In this document: one piece after another, positions 36,717-64,000 of the stretch
Layout of the letters: each line of letters opens with the position of its first letter
Position numbering within the stretch: the first letter of the stretch is position 1
Assembly: GCA_965203325.1 (NCBI GenBank)
Contig: OZ241875.1
Location: 2,496,001 to 2,560,000 of the forward strand
Direction of reading: 5' to 3'
Length of the DNA: 64,000 bases
Origin: a bacterium
Lineage (GTDB): Bacteria > UBA8248
The notes under the pieces: model-generated
The model's input: the letters and a program-made list of their open reading frames with translations, nothing else
What the model was told of the DNA's origin: nothing
The model's database searches: none
Made by a program: the position numbers and the translations under genes

Positions 36717-36869
36717 GCGAAATACCCGAAAGCCGCTGAGTGCCTGGCAGGAGACCGGGAGGAGTTGCTCGCCTTCTACGACTTCCAGGCGGGGCACTGG
36801 CAGAGCCTTCGGACGACGAACCCCATCGAGTCGACCTTCGTCACCATTCGCTTGCGAACGGCGAAGACG
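36717..36869 (+). mobile_element. IS256-family transposase internal fragment
   Basis: AKYPKAAECLAGDREELLAFYDFQAGHWQSLRTTNPIESTFVTIRLRTAKT. Confidence 0.8.
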
Positions 36870-38408
36870 GTCTCCGTGCCGGTACTGGACGACGCCATCG
36901 ACGAGGGCAAGGAGGTCATGCGGCTCCTGCTCTCGAACCCGAAGGGGGCGTATCTCAGGAACGTCCACAGGAAGGCGCGGGGGGTCATCACGAACGACGA
37001 CCCGCTGCAAAGGATGTGGCTCGCGCGCTTCGGCCGCGCGGCGGCGGGCCACGTCGCCGAGGCGATTGACGGACGCCTTTCGGGCGGCGGCGCTGCGGGC
37101 GTCGTGCTGGGCGGCCACAGCCTCACGGGCGGGGCGGAGCGCGATGCTCTCGAGTCGCGCCTCGCCGAGGCCCTGCTTGAGGAGAGGGAGGCCCGGCTCG
37201 GGCGCGGCGAGGAGGCGCCGGCGCCTTCGGTGCGCGAGGTCGCGATGTCCGATCTCCTCCTCGCGAGTTCGTTTCACATGGCCTCGGCGGAGAAGGTGGA
37301 CGCCGGCTCGCGCTGGTCGCTGTGGGGCCGGGGCGCGCGCTCCTCGTTCGAGGGCGCCGAGGGCGAACTCTCGCTGGATGGCGACGTGACGACGGCGACC
37401 GTGGGCTTCGACTACGAGCGGGCGCGCTGGCTGGTGGGCGTGGCGCTCTCGCGGAGTTCGGGCGACGGCTCATACAAAATGGGCGGCGCGTGCGACGCGG
37501 GCTGCGCGGGCGAGGTCGAGAGCGCCCTGACGGGTGTCTACCCCTACGCGCGCTACCGTGTGAGCGGGACGTTCTCGCTCTGGGGCGCGGTGGGCCACGG
37601 GCAGGGGGAGATGACGCTCACGCCCGGGGGGTCGTCCCCGCTGGAGGCCGACGTCGCGATGGGCATGGCGGCGGCGGGGGCGCGCGGGGTCGTTCTGCCC
37701 GCGCGCGAGGCGGGCGGGTTCGAGCTCGCGCTCCGCGCGGACGTCCTGGTGACGAACACGCGCTCGGACGCTGCGGCGGGCCTCGCGGAGACCGAAGCGC
37801 AGACGAGCCGCGTGCGCCTCGTGCTGGAGGGTTCGCGCTCGCTCAGGTTCGGCGATGCGGTGCTGACGCCCTCGCTGGAGATAGGGTTCCGGAACGATTC
37901 GGGCGACGCGGAGACGGGCGGCGGGGTGGAGGCCGGCGGCTCTGTCCGCTGGGCCTCGGGGGCCCTGACGACGGAGTTGCGCGCGCGGAGCCTGCTCTCC
38001 CACGGCGAGAGCGGTTATGAGGAATGGGGCGTGAGCGCCTCGGTGGCGTACGCTCCCGGCTCCGGGGGACGGGGCCTCACGCTGCGGGCGGGCTCCTCGT
38101 GGGGCGCCTCCACGGGCGGTGCGGAGCGGCTCTGGTCGCAGGCGGCGGGCCTGGCGCCTGCCGGTGCGTTCGAGCCGGGCGGTGCGGGCTTCGAGGCCGA
38201 GGCGGCCTGGGGCCTCGACGCCCCGCGGGGGCTGCTGACGCCCTATACGGGCGTGGCGGTCACCGGGGACGCGGAGACCTGGCGCGCGGGCGCGCGGTGG
38301 AAGCCCGGTGCGGCCACGGAGGTGAGCCTCGAGGCGAGACTCACCGAACAGGCCGGCGGCGGGAGACCCGAAGGCGGCCTCCTGCTCAAAGGCTCGAAGC
38401 GGTGGTAG
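36858..38408 (+). pseudogene. 5'-truncated Calx-beta/autotransporter beta-domain gene fused in frame to the IS256 fragment
   Basis: Near-identical to 63056-64000; WSLWGRG, GVYPYARY, LTPSLEIGFRND, terminal W; lacks signal peptide and passenger domain. Confidence 0.8.
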
Positions 38409-38857: not shown

Positions 38858-40882
38858 TTGCGCCAGGCGAAGCCCTGGAGAGGAGGATGCCATGACCTGA
38901 AACCTCTTATAGCGACTCAGCGGGTTCGACCCCCGCCCGGCAAAGGCGCAGCCCGTCAGCCGGAAGCGAGTCTTGCATGGCGTGCGGCAACGCGCGTCGT
39001 GAAGCGTAGACAGCAGGTGACGAAGCGGCGGGGGAAGCCTCGAAATCGGTCAATCGATGACGCCTTCATTGTTAACCATGTGGGGGCAGCACCGGAAGCG
39101 CCGCTATCGGCGAGGCGCAACGGGTCGTCCGGGGTCGTGGGCCGGCGCAAAGTCACGGGATGGGTCGCCAGGGAACCTGGGAGATCCTGCTCCTGCCCGT
39201 GGGCAAGGACGCTGGAAAGGGGATGCCAGCATGCAAATCCAGACCCCGGCCCGTCGCCGGGCCTGTACGGCGGCGGGAGCGCCTCATGGCGGACACGAAC
39301 CCGGCAGGCGCCCGCGGAGCCGGTTGGCGAAAACAATAAGCCGAAGGACATGCAAGGGCAGGAAGTCGTAGCGCCCTGATAGTATCGCTGAAGGCGGGGA
39401 ACCGTGGCCATCGGGACCCGCTGGAGGGAAGCGGGGCGTCATCTGTACAGAGCCACTGATGGGAAACGTTGGAGGAAACCCTGAGTTCCACAAACACGTA
39501 CACGAAACAGCAGTGGATAGCCGAACAGGCGAGGGAGCATCCGGAACGGGTGTTCACGTCCCTGCACCACCTCATCGACGGCGAGTGGATGCGCGAAGCG
39601 TACCGCCGCACGCGCAAGGATGGGGCGACGGGCATTGACCGCGTGAGTGCTGCCGACTACGAGAAGGACCTGGAGGCGAATCTTGACGACCTCCTGAGCC
39701 GGATGAAGTCGGGTCGCTACTTTGCGCCGCCGGTGCGTCGGCGCTACATCCCGAAGGCGGACGGCACGAAACGACCGCTTGGCATTCCGACGTTCGAAGA
39801 CAAGGTGGCGCAACGGGCAATCCTGATGCTGCTGGAGCCGATTTACGAGACGGACTTTTTGACGTGCTCGTACGGCTTCCGGCCCGGACGGTCGGCTCAC
39901 GATGCCCTGGACGCACTTCGCACGGGCATCATCGAGCAGCGCCAACGATGGGTGATAGACGCGGATTTGAAAGCGTACTTCGACTCAATCCCGCACACCC
40001 ACCTGCGGTCATTCCTCGACCTGCGGATTAAGGACGGCGTCGTAAGGCGCATGATTGACAAATGGCTGAAAGCGGGGGTGCTCGAAGAGGGCACCGTTCA
40101 CAGGCCGGTCGCCGGTACTCCTCAAGGTGGGGTCATCTCGCCGATGCTCTCGAACATCTTCCTGCACCATGTGCTGGACGAGTGGTTCGAGGAAGTGGCG
40201 AGGCCGCGCCTGCGCGGAAACTGCCAGCTGGTGCGATACGCCGATGACTTTGTCATCGCCTGCGAAGACCGCCACAGCGGCAAGCGATTGCTTAACGTGC
40301 TGGGCAAACGTCTCGGTCGATACGGACTCACGCTCCATGGGGCCAAGACGCGCTACGTGGACTTCCGCCGGAGGCGTCCCTACGGGCGTCACTGGATGGC
40401 GTCGGCCACGACGTTCGACTTCCTCGGCTTCACCCACGCTGGGGGCGGTCGATGCAAGGCAAGGACGTCGTTCGCCAAATCACGGCGAAAGGCCGCTTCG
40501 CCCGCGCGCTGAAATCGGTGCACGAGTGGTGCAAGAGACATCGGCACCTGCCGGTCAAGGCGCAGCATGACTATCTCGTCCGGGTGATACGAGGCCACTG
40601 CGCATATTACGGTCTGACAGGGAACGGCAAGCGTCTTCGGTGGTTCCGCTACCAGGTGGCTCGCACGTGGCGGAAGTGGCTTGCGCGCCGCAGCCGCCTG
40701 CGCCGGATGAACTGGGACCGGATGAACGCGCTTCTCTTGCGATACCCCCTTCCATTTGTCTCGTACGTGCGTTCTCGGCAAAGCTCCTTGAGCGAACCTG
40801 TCAGGTGAGGAACCGAGTGCGTCAATCGCGCACGCTCGGCTCTGTGGGGGGCGGGGCGCAGCGATGCCCCCGCCTACCCGGC
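38858..40882 (+). mobile_element. Group II intron (boundaries approximate)
   Basis: 5' TTGCG-CCAGG..CCTGG; domain V GAACCGAGTGCG..CGCACGCTCGGCTC (40810-40842); domain VI ending CCTACCCGGC; internal RT gene. Confidence 0.8.
39469..40808 (+). pseudogene. ltrA: Group II intron reverse transcriptase/maturase, frameshifted near 40440, no endonuclease domain
   Basis: RPLGIPTFEDK, SYGFRPGRS, GTPQGGVISP, RYADDFV, FDFLGFTH; maturase region (GHCAYYG) continues in another frame. Confidence 0.85.
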
Positions 40883-57358: not shown

Positions 57359-57539
57359 CCCCCGTTTCGGCCGAAAACCACGTAAGTCCTTGTACATCAA
57401 ATATATAAATTACCATTTATTTATCGAAAGACACGTTCATAGTCCCGCCCTATAGACAATCGTACGACTGGATACCCATAAACACGATAAACTCCTGTAT
57501 TAAAAGCGATAATTATCATATTTTCTTTTTCACCTCCCC

Positions 57540-57655: not shown

Positions 57656-58837
57656 ATGCCGAAAAGAAGCGAACGCAAGCTTACCAAACGCGTGGTCGAT
57701 GCGCTATCCGTCGAGACGAACGACGCCGTCTTCTGGGACCGGGAGCTGGCGGGCTTCGGAGTGCGGGTCTACGCCACGGGCCGGAAGGTCTACGTGGTGC
57801 AGTCACGGGGTCCGTGGGGTCCCAAACGCGTGGCGCTGGGCAAACACGGCGAGATGTCCACTGATGAGGCGAGGAAGACGGCGGCCGGCGTCATCGACCG
57901 CATCAAGCGGGGCGAGGAGCCCGAGCCCAAGCCGCCCGAGGCGGCGCCCACGGTGGAGGGGCTTGCCGGGCGTTTCATGCGCGACCATGCCGAAACGCAC
58001 TGCAAGCCCGACACCGTCAGACTGTACAGTTCCCTGCTCGGGAACCACATCGTTCCGGCGCTGGGCGGGACCAGGCTCGCCGATGTCGGCCGTGCGGAGG
58101 TATCGGAGTTGCACCACCGGTTGCGTGAGACGCCCGCCGTGGCCAACGCGGTGGCGGGCCTTCTCTCCAGAATGTTCAAGATGGCCGAGGCGTGGGGACT
58201 GGTTCCGCCCGGGGAGAACCCGTGCCGGGGGCTGCGCCGCTACCGGACGCGCAAGCGCGAGCGGTTCCTGACGCCAGAGGAGTTCCGCCGCCTGGGCCGG
58301 GCGCTCAGGGAGATTGAGGCCGAGGGGAATGCGTGGCCGGCCGCGGCCGCGGCGATCAGGCTCCTGGCGCTGACCGGGTGCAGGCGGGGCGAGATACTGG
58401 ATCTGAGGTGGGACGACGTGGACCGCACGACGGGTGAACTCAGGCTCCGGGACGCCAAGGCGGGCCCGCGCATGGCGCCCCTGACCAAACCCGTATCGAG
58501 GGTGCTGGAGGGGATCCCCCGCTTGTCGGACAACCCCTGGGTGATCTCTTCAAGGCATGGGAGGGGCCGCCTGGGGAACCTCTCCTACTACTGGGGGGCC
58601 GTGAGGGAGCGGGCGGGGCTTCATGATGTCCGCATTCATGACCTTCGGCACTCGTACGCCAGCCGGGCGCTGGCGCTAAACGAGAGTCTGTCCGCGATCG
58701 GCAGGCTGCTCGGACACCATCACGTGGTGAGCACGGCGCGCTACGCGCACCTGATGCGGGACGCCGAGAAGGCGGCGGCCGCCCGGGTGGGCGAGAGCAT
58801 CGGCGTCCACGTCACGAACGGGAGGATGGAGCGATGA
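57656..58837 (+). CDS. Tyrosine integrase with N-terminal arm-DNA-binding (DUF4102-like) domain
   Basis: WDRELAGFGVRV; catalytic TGCRRGE, HDLRH, LLGH..TARY; GGGAG RBS. Confidence 0.9.
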   Translation: MPKRSERKLTKRVVDALSVETNDAVFWDRELAGFGVRVYATGRKVYVVQSRGPWGPKRVALGKHGEMSTDEARKTAAGVIDRIKRGEEPEPKPPEAAPTVEGLAGRFMRDHAETHCKPDTVRLYSSLLGNHIVPALGGTRLADVGRAEVSELHHRLRETPAVANAVAGLLSRMFKMAEAWGLVPPGENPCRGLRRYRTRKRERFLTPEEFRRLGRALREIEAEGNAWPAAAAAIRLLALTGCRRGEILDLRWDDVDRTTGELRLRDAKAGPRMAPLTKPVSRVLEGIPRLSDNPWVISSRHGRGRLGNLSYYWGAVRERAGLHDVRIHDLRHSYASRALALNESLSAIGRLLGHHHVVSTARYAHLMRDAEKAAAARVGESIGVHVTNGRMER

Positions 58838-60000
58838 CGAAGCCCGCCATGAAAACGCTATCGAACCGGCTGGTGAGGAAACTCACTGTCGAGAAGGACA
58901 CTGTTTTCTGGGACCGCGATCTGACCGGCTTCGGGGTCCGGGTCTATCCCACCGGCTCAAAAGTCTACATCGCCCAGGCGCGGGGTCCCGAGGGCCCCAA
59001 ACGCGTGGCGGTGGGCCGCCACGGCGTTATCCATGCGGAGGAGGCCAGGAAGCGCGCGGCGCTCGTCATCGCGCGCATCAAGGCGGGCGAGGAACCTGTG
59101 CCCGAGCCGATGAAGCCGGCCTGCGGTCCCACGGTGGCCGGGCTGGCGAGGCGCTATCTCGAAGAATACGTTTCCGTGCGGTGCAAGCCGCGCACCGTGA
59201 AGACGCTCCGCTCCGTGGTCGGCAGGAACATCGTCCCGGCGCTGGGCGCAATGCCGATATCCGCGGTCGAGCGCAAACACGTGGCGGAACTCCACGGGCG
59301 GCTGAGCGCCACGCCCGCGTCGGCGAACCATGCCGTCCGGGCGCTGTCCGCGATGTACCGCCTCGCAGGTGAATGGGGTCTCGTGCCCGAGGGCATGAAC
59401 CCGTGCCGCGCCATCGCCGAATACCCGGTCGGCCGGCGGGAGCGCTTCCTCACCGAGGCGGAATTCGACCGACTGGGACGCGCACTCGACAAAGTCGAGA
59501 CGGAGGGCGGCGCGTCCGCGTCAGCCGTGGCCGCCATCCGTCTCCTGATGCTGACCGGGTGCCGGAAGTCGGAAATCCTCACGCTGCGCTGGGAGGAGGT
59601 GACGCTCGATCAGGCGGAACTGCGGCTCACCGACTCCAAGACGGGCGCACGCGTCGTTTCGCTCTCGGAGCCCGCGGTGAAACTCCTCGCGGGTCTGCCG
59701 CGCACCCCCGGGGATCCCTGGGTCATTCCCGGTAGGAAGCCGGGAACGCACCTGCGGAAGCTCGACGACGCCTGGCAGGCCGTCCGCTCGCGTGCGGGGC
59801 TCGCCGACATGCGCCTCCATGACCTGCGCCATTCGTTCGCATCGCGCGCTCTCGCGCTCGGCGAGGGACTTTCTGTGATAGGCAAACTCCTTGGCCACGC
59901 CAGGATCGAGACCACCTCGCGCTACGCCCATCTCGCGCGCGATTCGGTGCGCGAATCAGCCGAGCGGGTCGCCGAGAGCATCGCCGAAGACATGCTGTAG
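58834..60000 (+). CDS. Second tyrosine integrase, paralog of the first, translationally coupled
   Basis: WDRDLTGFGVRV; TGCRKSE, HDLRH, LLGH..TSRY; ATGA overlap. Confidence 0.9.
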   Translation: MTKPAMKTLSNRLVRKLTVEKDTVFWDRDLTGFGVRVYPTGSKVYIAQARGPEGPKRVAVGRHGVIHAEEARKRAALVIARIKAGEEPVPEPMKPACGPTVAGLARRYLEEYVSVRCKPRTVKTLRSVVGRNIVPALGAMPISAVERKHVAELHGRLSATPASANHAVRALSAMYRLAGEWGLVPEGMNPCRAIAEYPVGRRERFLTEAEFDRLGRALDKVETEGGASASAVAAIRLLMLTGCRKSEILTLRWEEVTLDQAELRLTDSKTGARVVSLSEPAVKLLAGLPRTPGDPWVIPGRKPGTHLRKLDDAWQAVRSRAGLADMRLHDLRHSFASRALALGEGLSVIGKLLGHARIETTSRYAHLARDSVRESAERVAESIAEDML

Positions 60001-60112
60001 GCCACCGGGCGCAACTCCCGGGAAACCCGGCCGATGATAAGCGGTTTTCCTGTATCTCAATCCCCGGCCCCGAACGGGTCTTCTCCATCGCGTTGTCTCA
60101 CGTTTTTTGTCA

Positions 60113-60185
60113 TACCCCTACGCGCGCTACCGTGTGAGCGGGACGTTCTCGCTCTGGGGCGCGGTGGGCCACGGGCAGGGGGAGA
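60113..60185 (+). repeat. 73-bp copy of an internal piece of the autotransporter beta-domain gene
   Basis: Identical to 37539-37611; one mismatch to 63734-63806. Confidence 0.9.
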
Positions 60186-60190
60186 CGTCG

Positions 60191-60417
60191 ATGAACGCGC
60201 GGGGGAGAACCACCTGAACACGCGGGAGGCGGCCGCCTGGCTCGGCCTCTCGCCCAAGACGCTGGAGCGCTACCGCGTGAGCGGAGAGGGACCGGATTTT
60301 CTTCGCACCGGATACCGGGTGCGCTACCTGCTCGAAGACCTCGAGAAGTGGGCCTCCGCCCGGAGGTGGACTTCCACGTCCGAGGAGAGAGCCGCCCGGA
60401 GGAGGAAGAGGCGGTAG
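60191..60417 (+). CDS. Excisionase-like HTH (MerR/HTH_17) protein; start uncertain, ATG 60191 is out of frame by one base at a G5 run
   Basis: LNTREAAAWLGLSPKTLERYRVSGEGPDF...VRY..EDLEKW. Confidence 0.75.
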
Positions 60418-60499
60418 AGGGATATTCGGGAGAAGACGGGCGTCCTGCACGCGGCGGACCTCCCGGGAACCAGGGACATGCTCACGACGAAACGCCGGA

Positions 60500-60809
60500 T
60501 GGCCTCACAGGCCGTAGCGCAGCCTCGCCATCGCGGCCACGGCCGCCGAGTGCCCCCCTCGTAGATATCCCCCAGGTACGCCGCTATCCCGGCGTCGGTC
60601 TCGGGGTTTCCCGAGCGCTCGAATCCCCTGAGCGCCGTCTCGTACACTCGCCGCGTGTTCTCAGACATCGACGCCTTCGCCAGGTCGGCGGCCGCACGGG
60701 CCGGTCGGGCCGGCCTCCTCGTCAAAGCGATGTCCTGCGTCGGGTCGGATGGTCTTGCCCCCGTCGTCATGGCGAGAAGCCAACCTTCCAGATCGGCGAC
60801 CGTGTCCAT
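60500..60809 (-). pseudogene. N-terminal fragment of a Cre-like tyrosine recombinase (catalytic domain absent)
   Basis: ASMSENTRRVYETALRGF..DAGIAAYLGDIYEGG; after a G-run frameshift it continues HSAAVAAMA and then similarity ends. Confidence 0.6.
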
Positions 60810-60917
60810 TGCCTAGGGCCGCCCGAGCGCCTCCTTGATTGCCAAGTATGGACGACGACGGGGAATTTCCATAAAAAAAGCCGTTTCGCAAACGAATACC
60901 GGCGAAACGGCGGGTTT

Positions 60918-61130
60918 CTGGAGTCCGATAATTGCCATTATCGGAAAACATAACACCTCTGAAAGCCATGTCAAGCGCGATTTCGGGGTCCCCGGAGGGG
61001 TTTCGGGCGCCTTTTTGCGTCTTTTTTCGCTCATGTTTCGCTCATTTGCGGCCCGAATGCGCCCCGAAACGGGTTTTTCGGCGGAAAACAAGGCTTCTGG
61101 GGGCCAATAATGGCAATTAGCGGACACCAG
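60918..61130. promoter_or_regulatory. Candidate invertible promoter: inverted lox/dif-like sites flanking a sigma70 promoter
   Basis: 27-bp inverted repeats with 3 mismatches (60918-60944 / 61104-61130) sharing the TTGCCA spacer; internal minus-strand TTGACA-16 bp-TATGTT with extended TG. Confidence 0.6.
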
Positions 61131-61237
61131 CCCGGGTTCGAGGTGGGCGCATACCGCAGGAACATGTGTCTCGCGGAAAGACTCACTACCGGCTGCGTCA
61201 GCTTGAACCCGAAATCACGGAACAGGGGGCATTCCAA

Positions 61238-64000
61238 ATGAAGAACATTGCACGGATTTCGATGCTGCCGGCGGCGGCGTTCTGCAGCGCGGCCCGGCGG
61301 CGTGAAGTGCGCCCCGCCGGAGTGCGCGAGCCGGCTTCTCCGACGGGATCATACCAGCGGTCTGACCCGCGTCCCGGGCGCTTCCGCGCCCGCCTCTTCG
61401 GTCTCCTCCCCGTCCTTGCGTTGCTGGTAGGCGCCCTGTTCCTCCTCACCGCCGCGCCGGTCGAGGCACAGACCAAGACCTTCTCCATCACCGAGAGAGC
61501 CCGCGCTGCGGAGGGTGCCAGCGCCTCCCTGACTATCACCCTGAGCGAGGACGCGCCAAGCGCCGGGGTCGCGTTCACGGTCACCGCCGGATTCGGCGGT
61601 TCGTCGACCGCAGAGGCGGCGGACGTGATGTCCATCGACTCGCCGGTGACAATTCCCAGCGGCACCAGGAGCCTGAGTATCGCAATTCCCCTGACCGACG
61701 ACGACATGGATGAGGACGAGGAGACTTTCACTGTCACTATCGCCACTACGGCCGAGGGCTGGATGAAGGAAGGGGATGGCAAGGATACTGCCGTGGTCTC
61801 CATCGACGACGACGACAACGCCGGAGTCAACCTCATCGGTGTCAGTACCATCAGTAACGATAAGGGCCCAAAGATCGGGCATCTCAACGTGTACCAAAAC
61901 ACTCCGGCGACCTACCAAGTGGTGCTGACCAGCCGGCCGGTTGCGGATGTGACCATCAATGTGTCTGCGACGATGTGGAACAGTGTGTCCCCGGCGTCGC
62001 ACACCTTCGCCGCGAGTTCCGCGAATGACTGGAGGGAGCCGAAGGAGTTCACCGTAACTGCCGGTAGTCGCATCGGTAGTGCGCTCATCCTTCACACCGT
62101 GACAACTAGCGACCCCAACTACGGCACTCTTCAGTACAGCGACTGGTCTCACACTTCCAACAAACTACTACTGGACATCCGACCGCCCTTGCCGATGCCG
62201 ACTCGCCTGACGCTGCGCGCCGATCGCCTGCCGGCCGAGGGCGAAGGGGCAGTGACGGTGACGGCGACGCTGGACAATCCAGCGCCCTGGAGCGGCACGA
62301 CGGTCAGGCTCACCCTCTCGGGCACAGCCGCTGGTGAAGGAACCGACTACACGCTGTCGTCGACCACGATCAGCATCGGTGCAGCCCAGACGACCGGGAC
62401 GACGACCATCACGGTCACCGACGACAGCGCGGACGACGACGACGAGACCATCGTGCTGGAGGCGAGCAGCGGTAACCCGGAGCTGACTTCAAACAAGCTG
62501 ACGCTGACCATTGAGGACAACGACCAGACGGCGCAGCAGCAGCGCACGGAGCCGCTGACGGCGGCGTTCGAGCGGGCGCCGGCGGCGCATGACGGCACGG
62601 AGACGTTCCGGTTCAACGTGCGCTTCAGCGAGGCGCTGGGCGAGACCGCGAACGCCCCAGAGGTCGCCTCGTTCGCCGTGCGGGGCGGCAAGGTGAAGCG
62701 CGTGCGAAAGGTGGAGTCCGGCCTGTGGCGGGTGCGCATCGCGCCGAAGTCGTGGAAGGACGTGACGGTGACGCTGGCGGGCGGCCGCGCCTGCGATGAG
62801 GCGGGCGCGGTGTGCACGGCCGACGGGAGGTCCGTGTCGAACACGTCGACGATGACCATCGGCGGCCCGGTGCGGATCCGGGTCGAGGGCGCCCGGGCGA
62901 AGGAAGGCAGGGACGCATCGCTCGACTTCGCGGTGACGCTCAACCGCGCGGCGGCGCACGAGGTCTCGGTGGACTATGAGACCGCCGACGAGACGGCGAC
63001 GGCGGGGGCCGACTACACGGCGGTCTCCGGCACGCTGACCTTCGCGGCCGGCGAGACGGCGAAGACGGTCTCGGTCCCTGTGCTCGACGACGCCATCGAC
63101 GAGGGCAAGGAGGTCATGCGGCTCCTGCTCTCGAACCCGCAGGGGGCGTTCCTGCGAGGCGTGCACACCAAGGCGCGGGGGGTCATCCGCAACGACGACC
63201 CGCTGCAAAGGATGTGGCTCGCGCGCTTCGGGCGCGCGGCGGCGGGCCACGTCGCCGAGGCGATTGAAGGACGCCTTTCGGACGCCGCCGCGGGCGTCGT
63301 GCTGGGCGGCCACAGCCTCTCAGGCGGGCCGGAGCGCGAGGCCATCGAGTCGCGCCTCGCCGAGGCCCTCCTCAAGGAGAGGGAGGTCCGGCTCGGGCGC
63401 GGCGGGGAGGCGCCGGCGCCTTCGGTGCGCGAGGTCGCGATGTCCGACCTCCTCCTCGCGAGTTCGTTTCATATGGCCTCGGCGGAGAAGGTGGACGCCG
63501 GCTCGCGCTGGTCGCTGTGGGGCCGGGGCGCGCGCTCCTCGTTCGAGGGCGTCGAGGGTGATCTCTCGCTGGAGGGCGACGTGACGACGGCGACCGTGGG
63601 CTTCGACTACGAGCGGGCGCGCTGGCTGGTGGGCGTGGCGCTCTCGCGAAGCGCGGGCGACGGCTCGTACAAGGCGGGCGGCGCGTGCGATACGGGCTGC
63701 GCGGGCGAGGTGGAGAGCACGCTTACGGGTGTCTACCCCTACGCGCGCTACCGTGTGAGCGGGACGTTCTCGCTCTGGGGCGCTGTGGGCCACGGGCAGG
63801 GGGAGATGACGCTCACGCCCGGGGGGTCGTCCCCGGTGGAGGCCGACGTCGCGATGGGCATGGCGGCGGCCGGGGCGCGCGGGGTCGTTCTGCCCGCGCG
63901 CGAGGCGGGCGGGTTCGAGCTCGCGCTCCGCGCGGACGTCCTGGTGACGAACACGCGCTCGGACGCTGCGGCGGGCCTGGCGGAGACCGAGGCGCAGACG
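61238..64000 (+). CDS. Large surface protein with Calx-beta-like repeats and a C-terminal autotransporter beta-domain (3' end outside window)
   Basis: ATG 61238; signal peptide LLPVLALLVGALFLLTAAPVEA|Q; DDDMDEDEETFTV and ATAGADY..GTLTFAAGETAKTVSVPVLDDAIDEG motifs; same frame at both ends, no stop seen. Confidence 0.85.
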   Translation, partial: MKNIARISMLPAAAFCSAARRREVRPAGVREPASPTGSYQRSDPRPGRFRARLFGLLPVLALLVGALFLLTAAPVEAQTKTFSITERARAAEGASASLTITLSEDAPSAGVAFTVTAGFGGSSTAEAADVMSIDSPVTIPSGTRSLSIAIPLTDDDMDEDEETFTVTIATTAEGWMKEGDGKDTAVVSIDDDDNAGVNLIGVSTISNDKGPKIGHLNVYQNTPATYQVVLTSRPVADVTINVSATMWNSVSPASHTFAASSANDWREPKEFTVTAGSRIGSALILHTVTTSDPNYGTLQYSDWSHTSNKLLLDIRPPLPMPTRLTLRADRLPAEGEGAVTVTATLDNPAPWSGTTVRLTLSGTAAGEGTDYTLSSTTISIGAAQTTGTTTITVTDDSADDDDETIVLEASSGNPELTSNKLTLTIEDNDQTAQQQRTEPLTAAFERAPAAHDGTETFRFNVRFSEALGETANAPEVASFAVRGGKVKRVRKVESGLWRVRIAPKSWKDVTVTLAGGRACDEAGAVCTADGRSVSNTSTMTIGGPVRIRVEGARAKEGRDASLDFAVTLNRAAAHEVSVDYETADETATAGADYTAVSGTLTFAAGETAKTVSVPVLDDAIDEGKEVMRLLLSNPQGAFLRGVHTKARGVIRNDDPLQRMWLARFGRAAAGHVAEAIEGRLSDAAAGVVLGGHSLSGGPEREAIESRLAEALLKEREVRLGRGGEAPAPSVREVAMSDLLLASSFHMASAEKVDAGSRWSLWGRGARSSFEGVEGDLSLEGDVTTATVGFDYERARWLVGVALSRSAGDGSYKAGGACDTGCAGEVESTLTGVYPYARYRVSGTFSLWGAVGHGQGEMTLTPGGSSPVEADVAMGMAAAGARGVVLPAREAGGFELALRADVLVTNTRSDAAAGLAETEAQT

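Follow-up and report, generated by a model that had tools for sequence, protein, structure and literature searches.

A 73-bp beta-domain fragment between two chimeric joints, one of them at a predicted origin of transfer, in a twin-integrase island of an uncultured symbiont

The TrwC relaxase of plasmid R388 (MOBF family) recombines copies of the origin of transfer (oriT) and, in the final strand transfer, can pass the strand bound to it on to a mismatched acceptor (PMC3264647, PMC6049929), and recombination or integration at minimal or mismatched oriT sites is described with engineered plasmids and targets (PMC3264647, PMC6049929, PMC4176350). In hybrid integrative and conjugative elements of the SXT/R391 group, related elements in one cell recombine via shared backbone genes, which leads to new cargo combinations (PMC2786100). 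Homology-facilitated illegitimate recombination, described for natural transformation, joins DNA by long homology at one end and short GC-rich microhomology at the other (PMC6382021). We compared these systems with a locus in a 64,000-bp stretch of DNA from an uncultured symbiont (UBA8248; genome G000, a single contig of 4.39 Mb, C1 2,496,001-2,560,000; hereafter the window), which at its right end runs into the left end of island H (G000 2553.4-2588.5 kb), a member of a family of twin-integrase islands. Here a 73-bp fragment of an autotransporter-like beta-domain gene, YPYARYRVSGTFSLWGAVGHGQGE, lies behind two tyrosine integrases. Direct repeats beside tyrosine integrases, as at this locus, are also found as attachment (att) cores of tyrosine-integrase elements and as integron- or shufflon-type cassette sites, and the initial annotation had read the fragment along such lines. 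In our best explanation, to which we assign a probability of roughly 0.6, island H is instead a one-off hybrid: a relaxase-linked break would have been joined to an oriT look-alike in an adhesin gene, a promoter-switch-passenger module would have been spliced in as well, and the 73-mer would be the leftover between the two joints.

A repeat search found the 73-mer three times in direct orientation in the window, as annotated initially: alone at 60113-60185 (plus strand), in its native place within the adhesin gene at 63734-63806 (plus strand), 3,621 bp further on, and at 37539-37611. Base 51 of the repeat is indeed G at 37589 and 60163 and T at 63784. Counting copies genome-wide, which had been proposed as a check, gave 10 at 97-100% identity (BLAST against G000; E = 2e-32 for the 73-bp match, far past chance). 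Nine of them lie inside full beta-domain coding sequence with native flanks on both sides; the copy at 60113 alone has foreign flanks, and each of its ends is a chimeric joint, the two being microhomology joints unrelated to each other. This copy had been called isolated, but on its left it adjoins half of an oriT-like motif and not blank spacer. This left half spans 60078-60119 (plus strand) with the core TTTTTTGTCATACCCCT at 60103-60119, and the left joint is formed by the 7 bp TACCCCT (60113-60119, plus strand) common to the oriT core and the beta-domain gene. The sequence before 60113 matches a motif that islands E and K have ahead of trwB and islands A, B and C ahead of the relaxase gene. 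In a relative, G012, the same integrase pair is followed by the same flank, which continues as TGTCATACCCCTGCGCAG and then into trwB and trwC (Pfam TrwB and TrwC); one contig of sequencing run X1 also continues into the intact motif. The window departs from the G012-type sequence inside TACCCCT and goes on as beta-domain DNA. Among 10 matches to the left flank, two were set aside as chance; seven of the remaining eight run into the motif, with trwB 338-510 nt on, and the window is the sole interrupted one. The 3'-end remnant of a TrwC-type relaxase gene (60049-60091, minus strand; 79-81% match to relaxase gene ends) is also present in G012 and is therefore older than the rearrangement.

By its sequence, the oriT-like motif behaves like a MOBF nic region and is a predicted origin. 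It has a fixed orientation upstream of coupling protein or relaxase genes: 16 of 72 relaxase-upstream regions carry it at ≤4 mismatches on one strand and 0 of 72 on the other, and 13 of 30 loci found with the right half of the motif as anchor have a relaxase gene behind it, without exception on one side and one strand. The core resembles mapped nic sites (TGCG..G-T-N-T/purine, the slash marking the nick), its minus strand reading TGCGCAGGGGTAT/G as compared to TGCGTGGGGTGT/G for the F nic sequence (PMC2504302), with one extra base. All 25 distinct sequences found with the right-half anchor only keep the G that would follow the nick; the two bases beyond it are variable, which the nic rules of R388 tolerate (PMC4176350). 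On the minus strand, the nick is predicted between 60112 and 60111 in the F/R388 sequence register (T/G), which is better supported, or between 60113 and 60112 (A/T) in the distance register, which places it 8 bases from TGCG as in F and R388 and at the exact edge of the shared 7 bp. With these two registers the left joint falls 0-1 nt from the predicted nick, with the beta acceptor 5' and the origin 3' of it on the minus strand. Two other readings of the motif were rejected: a sigma70 promoter was not called there in a scan of 59950-61300, and a top-strand nick, considered for its likeness to R388 TTGTCT/ATAGCCC, would make the relaxase genes part of the leading region, contrary to the usual arrangement. 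A de novo k-mer search upstream of 59 non-redundant relaxase regions yielded mainly GC-rich words. Motif copies in islands J (G000 3837827) and K (4261855) are altered right at the predicted nick, the former on the T-run side in a variant also seen in relatives, the latter in four core bases.

The likeness to R388 TrwC thus comprises a TrwC-family relaxase and TrwB on the ancestral island and a joint at a nic-like core, with the true origin 3' of the nick and a degenerate acceptor on its 5' side. It differs in that the event here is natural, single, inferred and located in coding sequence, in that the joint is exact under one of two nick registers, and in a core sequence unlike that of R388. 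In the literature search, which covered openly accessible and not subscription papers and in which most matches were judged by their listing, a natural junction of oriT to a coding mimic was not found.

In the whole adhesin gene, no stretch comes as close to the G012 oriT core as the start of the 73-mer. Both sites contain TGTC(A)TACCCCT.CGC and a further box, TGTGAGCG, with a score of 15-16 (top 11-14% of control windows). Of the control windows from the replaced 20-kb segment, 87-111 of 810 and 299 of 1,351 match as well (11-22%), and thus microhomology alone does not single out the origin. The post hoc chance of a joint at the origin is about 1 in 100-300, and something besides microhomology probably chose the spot. 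A joint made without relaxase, by ordinary microhomology-mediated deletion or by template switching between the look-alikes, with the origin position due to chance or to easy melting beside the T-run, is the less likely but strongest competing explanation: the two boxes are shared, bases are retained on both sides of the likelier nick, and the right joint shows that microhomology joining occurs here. Nevertheless, with hundreds of equal microhomologies in the replaced 20 kb, the joint lies ≤1 nt from the predicted nick, and its polarity is that of relaxase termination.

Several observations speak against a relaxase at the left joint or against the hybrid as such. No recognisable motif copy was found in 56 of the 72 relaxase-upstream regions, and 17 of the 30 right-anchored loci are without relaxase or trwB within 1.5 kb. 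Under the better-supported T/G nick the joint keeps one extra origin base, being exact only in the A/T register. Hairpin folding gave a 4-bp stem in the island E copy and none better than shuffles, and the island K copy is altered in its core. Backbone ancestry along island H is mosaic throughout, and the second crossover was not located. Matches to VirB4 or TraC were not found in G000, and transfer would need a helper. Finally, we are dealing with a single event without recurrence: neither joint occurs in 22 other genomes of the genus, so that each is found in one of 23 genomes overall, scans of metagenome contigs for the left flank and the left joint gave 0 matches, and neither reciprocal scar of the joints was found in G000.

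The right joint (60173-60185, plus strand) connects the beta-domain gene to a 239-aa multi-helix-turn-helix (HTH) regulator gene by a microhomology of 11 of 13 bases, with an exact GGGAGA at 60180-60185 that the regulator gene has at this place in 8 of its 11 other copies. The sequence behind it had been taken for an excisionase-like HTH gene. All 11 other copies of this HTH lie inside the 239-aa gene, where the sequence from 60186 on continues upstream; the joint lies in codon 164, with the beta sequence in another reading frame, and the supposed excisionase is therefore a likely remnant, the 3' third (codons 164-239 with HTH_17; 60186-60417, plus strand) of a gene that is whole at other loci. 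A stand-alone excisionase was rejected, as the open frame 60034-60417 has HTH_17 but begins in non-coding remnant DNA. By microhomology, then, the 73-mer was fused into the middle of a regulator gene. It is followed by a shortened copy of a 322-aa tyrosine recombinase, a putative invertase (60324-60809, minus strand; same protein cluster), which is whole at the right end of island H with a Phage_integrase match; the remnant is without Pfam match.

From the two observed joints, we infer the agents and routes of two steps as follows. One parent would be a G012-like island (int1-int2-oriT-trwB-trwC-cargo), the other a sister island of different layout (regulator-switch-adhesin-cargo-backbone). 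In step 1, DNA at the nick would have been joined to the oriT look-alike in the beta-domain gene of the sister, likely triggered by a TrwC-type relaxase, and a homologous second crossover in the shared backbone would have completed the hybrid, with loss of trwB, trwC and the old cargo. This may be pictured as a co-integrate of the G012-like and a type-1 island (see below), resolved at the look-alike into an island H with a headless barrel gene and without trwB-trwC. In step 2, a module from another paralogue would have been joined, with GGGAGA as the short match on one side and extended beta-domain homology on the opposite side, either by homology-facilitated illegitimate recombination or by entry of a 3.6-kb circle via the 73 bp; this would have restored a complete, switchable adhesin gene and left the 73-mer behind. 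Both orders of the two steps are possible. Step 2 resembles homology-facilitated illegitimate recombination in pairing a long homologous end with a short GC-rich microhomology (6 bases exact, 11 matching out of 13), but differs in that circle entry through 73 bp gives the same product here; single-nucleotide polymorphisms around the two copies did not discriminate between the two routes.

A 3.6-kb circle had already been proposed in the initial annotation, as part of a programmed exchange in which the 73-mer serves as crossover site or att core for integrases that move the adhesin module. We consider such a programme highly improbable. The direct repeats do bracket exactly the promoter-passenger module, with HTH remnant, switch, signal peptide and passenger, and host recombination could loop out the 3,621 bp between them; the two copies also differ in allele, as expected for a circle from another paralogue, and the structure is what such an insertion would leave. 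A dedicated exchange system, however, is not what we find, given the presence in one of 23 genomes and the missing reciprocal scars. The 73-mer belongs to the best-conserved 4% of windows in the region shared by the paralogues, but conservation is equally high at +120 to +230 from it and is explained by the near-invariant residues P, Y and R. Recombination does take place among the nine beta-domain paralogues (61% incompatible site pairs; none as clustered among 2000 permutations), yet the boundary between passenger and shared part lies, for 6 of 8 paralogues, some 1.2 kb upstream of the 73-mer (-1198 to -1204; -1068 and -683 in the others). The G allele had been thought to point to the 37.5-kb copy; it occurs in 3 of 9 gene copies, and that copy, which has a different truncation point, was rejected as donor. 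It lies in a headless paralogous adhesin gene (36854-38408, plus strand) that had been offered as a target of the exchange, but this gene was cut by an IS256 remnant (36717-36869) 683 nt upstream of its 73-mer. As an att core or cassette site, the 73-mer would be unusual in being coding sequence with ragged microhomology ends, internal to the island and not recurrent. A better match for the att core of island H is the candidate 10-mer ATTTATCGAA at its left end (57419-57428, plus strand), which recurs at G000 2588520; at the orthologous G012 locus the left flank is directly joined to the right-end sequence without island H, and with the 10-mer at both island ends this fits an att core. A dedicated cassette exchange is thus not supported, and the repeat, now without dedicated role, would allow only a rare RecA-type loss of 3,621 bp.

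The fragment or the left joint might also be an assembly artefact and absent from the cell, which we regard as quite improbable. Among the genomes searched, both joint patterns are known from this assembly alone, and from assembled sequence rather than from long reads. In contigs of five runs (X1, X15, X16, X17 and X19), which show presence only and in which low-depth links can be pruned, none of the listed pieces crosses the left joint; in run X15, two 59-nt contigs carry native beta sequence across 60113, and no contig covers 60020-60073. A misjoin at common k-mer sizes, suspected initially, would at a 73-bp repeat swap native flanks, whereas both flanks are foreign here. Moreover, the joints share 7 or 6 bases with the native context, too few for an overlap misjoin, the genome is one 4.39-Mb contig, and the left flank agrees with G012 as far as the motif. 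Run X15, possibly the source sample, yielded a 70-nt contig with full identity to 60156-60225 at single-copy depth (12.5, compared to 12.9 for the integrase-2 contig of that run), although with 30 letters on one side it stays below the 31-letter bridging rule.

The genome holds about 10 paralogous twin-integrase islands of 35-95 kb and about 11 paralogous integrase pairs. Each has a pair of tyrosine integrases at one end, while the 239-aa multi-HTH gene lies at the other, together with an invertible promoter and genes for a tyrosine recombinase and a surface protein; all share a small backbone (ssb, DUF4326, SLOG, NikA-like). A TrwC relaxase is encoded in several islands, two of which have TrwB too (Pfam). 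In type-1 islands (A, B, C, J) the oriT-like motif and the relaxase lie beside the backbone, and the adhesin is followed by cargo, while in type-2 islands (D, E, F, K and that of G012) the motif and trwB-trwC, where present, come right after the integrases, and the adhesin abuts the backbone. Island H combines type-2 ends with the type-1 middle of adhesin then cargo; it carries a right-end module of its own with two lipoprotein-like genes, a further module immediately behind integrase 2, and lacks a relaxase. Its flank behind the adhesin matches type-1 islands over 309-332 nt as compared to about 190-207 nt for type-2 islands, and together with its content after the joint (adhesin, cargo, opposed backbone) this part is as in type-1 islands. 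Integrase 1 (57656-58837, plus strand; Arm-DNA-bind_3 and Phage_integrase) and integrase 2 (58834-60000, plus strand; both by Pfam) share 96% nucleotide identity with the G012 island. Integrative mobilizable elements combine integrase, relaxase and oriT without their own mating-pair system, and the G012 relative and islands A, B, C, E, J and K have this gene content. Island H keeps the integrases and has lost relaxase, trwB and half of the origin, and falls outside that definition; from its predicted genes, it is a decayed member of this type. As in SXT/R391 hybrids, related elements appear to have recombined into new cargo combinations; the islands here differ in being dispersed, with twin integrases and without mating-pair genes found, and in having one crossover at the origin and not in homologous genes.

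Further observations were made on the islands. Beside gene f7, islands D, E, F, H and K have lost the oriT-like core and the adjacent relaxase by a short deletion, both being present in A, B, C and J. Tandem right-end modules with adhesin and lipoprotein genes at G012:C2 2391.8k and 2398.5k indicate module accretion in relatives too. Island K contains genes for 988, 297 and 101 aa in a row (G000 4244396-4248574), the N-termini of which presumably resemble Cas9, Cas1 and Cas2. At G000 473k, 1861k, 1957k, 2033k and 4271k, an integrase subfamily starts inside a GGATTCCGGC...GCCGGAATGAC palindrome, which suggests insertion into a dispersed repeat.

The adhesin of island H (61238-64000 in the window and on to G000 2560603, plus strand) has 1,121 aa from Met 61238, with a long signal peptide, Calx-beta repeats and a C-terminal beta-barrel; its part shared with the paralogues begins near 62530. 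The locus resembles a type Va autotransporter with a fimS-like invertible promoter. Signal peptide, passenger and C-terminal outer-membrane beta-barrel (the latter predicted) are found in one chain, and the barrel ends in Trp as in type Va proteins. The C-terminal domain had no Pfam or NCBIfam match of its own, but 10 of 45 aligned relatives match PF03797 and 16 of 45 match PF13505. An alignment-based model of this region gave an all-beta barrel (predicted local distance difference test score, pLDDT, 83), with the beta-domains of BrkA, EspP and Hbp as matches of low root-mean-square deviation (rmsd; BrkA TM score 0.63 by target, rmsd 5.0); a sequence search of the PDB found no barrel. The model contains 19-20 strands over 369 aa, with the upstream helix outside the modelled part, whereas a classical type Va barrel has 12. 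Together with the two Pfam families, the predicted strands may reflect an enlarged barrel or two tandem barrels. The barrel region (window 37299-38405 and paralogues) comprises about 370 aa.

The invertible promoter segment (60918-61130) is bounded by 27-bp inverted-repeat arms at 60918-60944 and 61104-61130. Its sole promoter-like site, sigma70-like (60974->60947), points away from the adhesin gene; relative to the copy here, the switch is inverted in islands F, J and G012, and the occurrence of both orientations among paralogues resembles a fimS-like switch. The genome contains 16 switch copies, and while the recombinase beside this one is shortened, whole copies exist in trans. In islands C, E and K the adhesin is split over two adjacent genes. 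A tRNA-Ala called by ARAGORN inside beta-domain coding sequence (63617-63688; four paralogues have such a call too) is likely a false positive. A group II intron reverse transcriptase (39469-40808; TIGR04416) lies between the headless adhesin gene and a tRNA-Ser; its frame stops at 40512, and similar coding seems to continue in another frame.

That beta-domain genes carry a working oriT mimic, which a TrwC relaxase uses to capture phase-variable adhesin genes and cargo from sister islands, appears improbable. An evolved mimic was rejected: the oriT likeness of the beta site results from the near-invariant P, Y and R encoded there, and the site lies within 3 mismatches of the core in only 4 of 23 genomes. 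If true, there would be a relaxase-driven route to adhesin shuffling, seen as a natural footprint, and the joint, which rebuilds a near-complete nic core, could keep the hybrid island usable by relaxases in trans. In our preferred reading of a one-off hybrid, the feature is mostly a historical scar and no new antigenic-variation machine is revealed; its value lies in the junction at the predicted nick. If a relaxase made the left joint, it would be a natural case of an activity that the papers compared here show with engineered targets only. The locus is a well-resolved case of a mobile island family rebuilding itself, and with the likely nick site of the family located to a base or two, the origin of the mobile DNA of this uncultured symbiont becomes directly testable.

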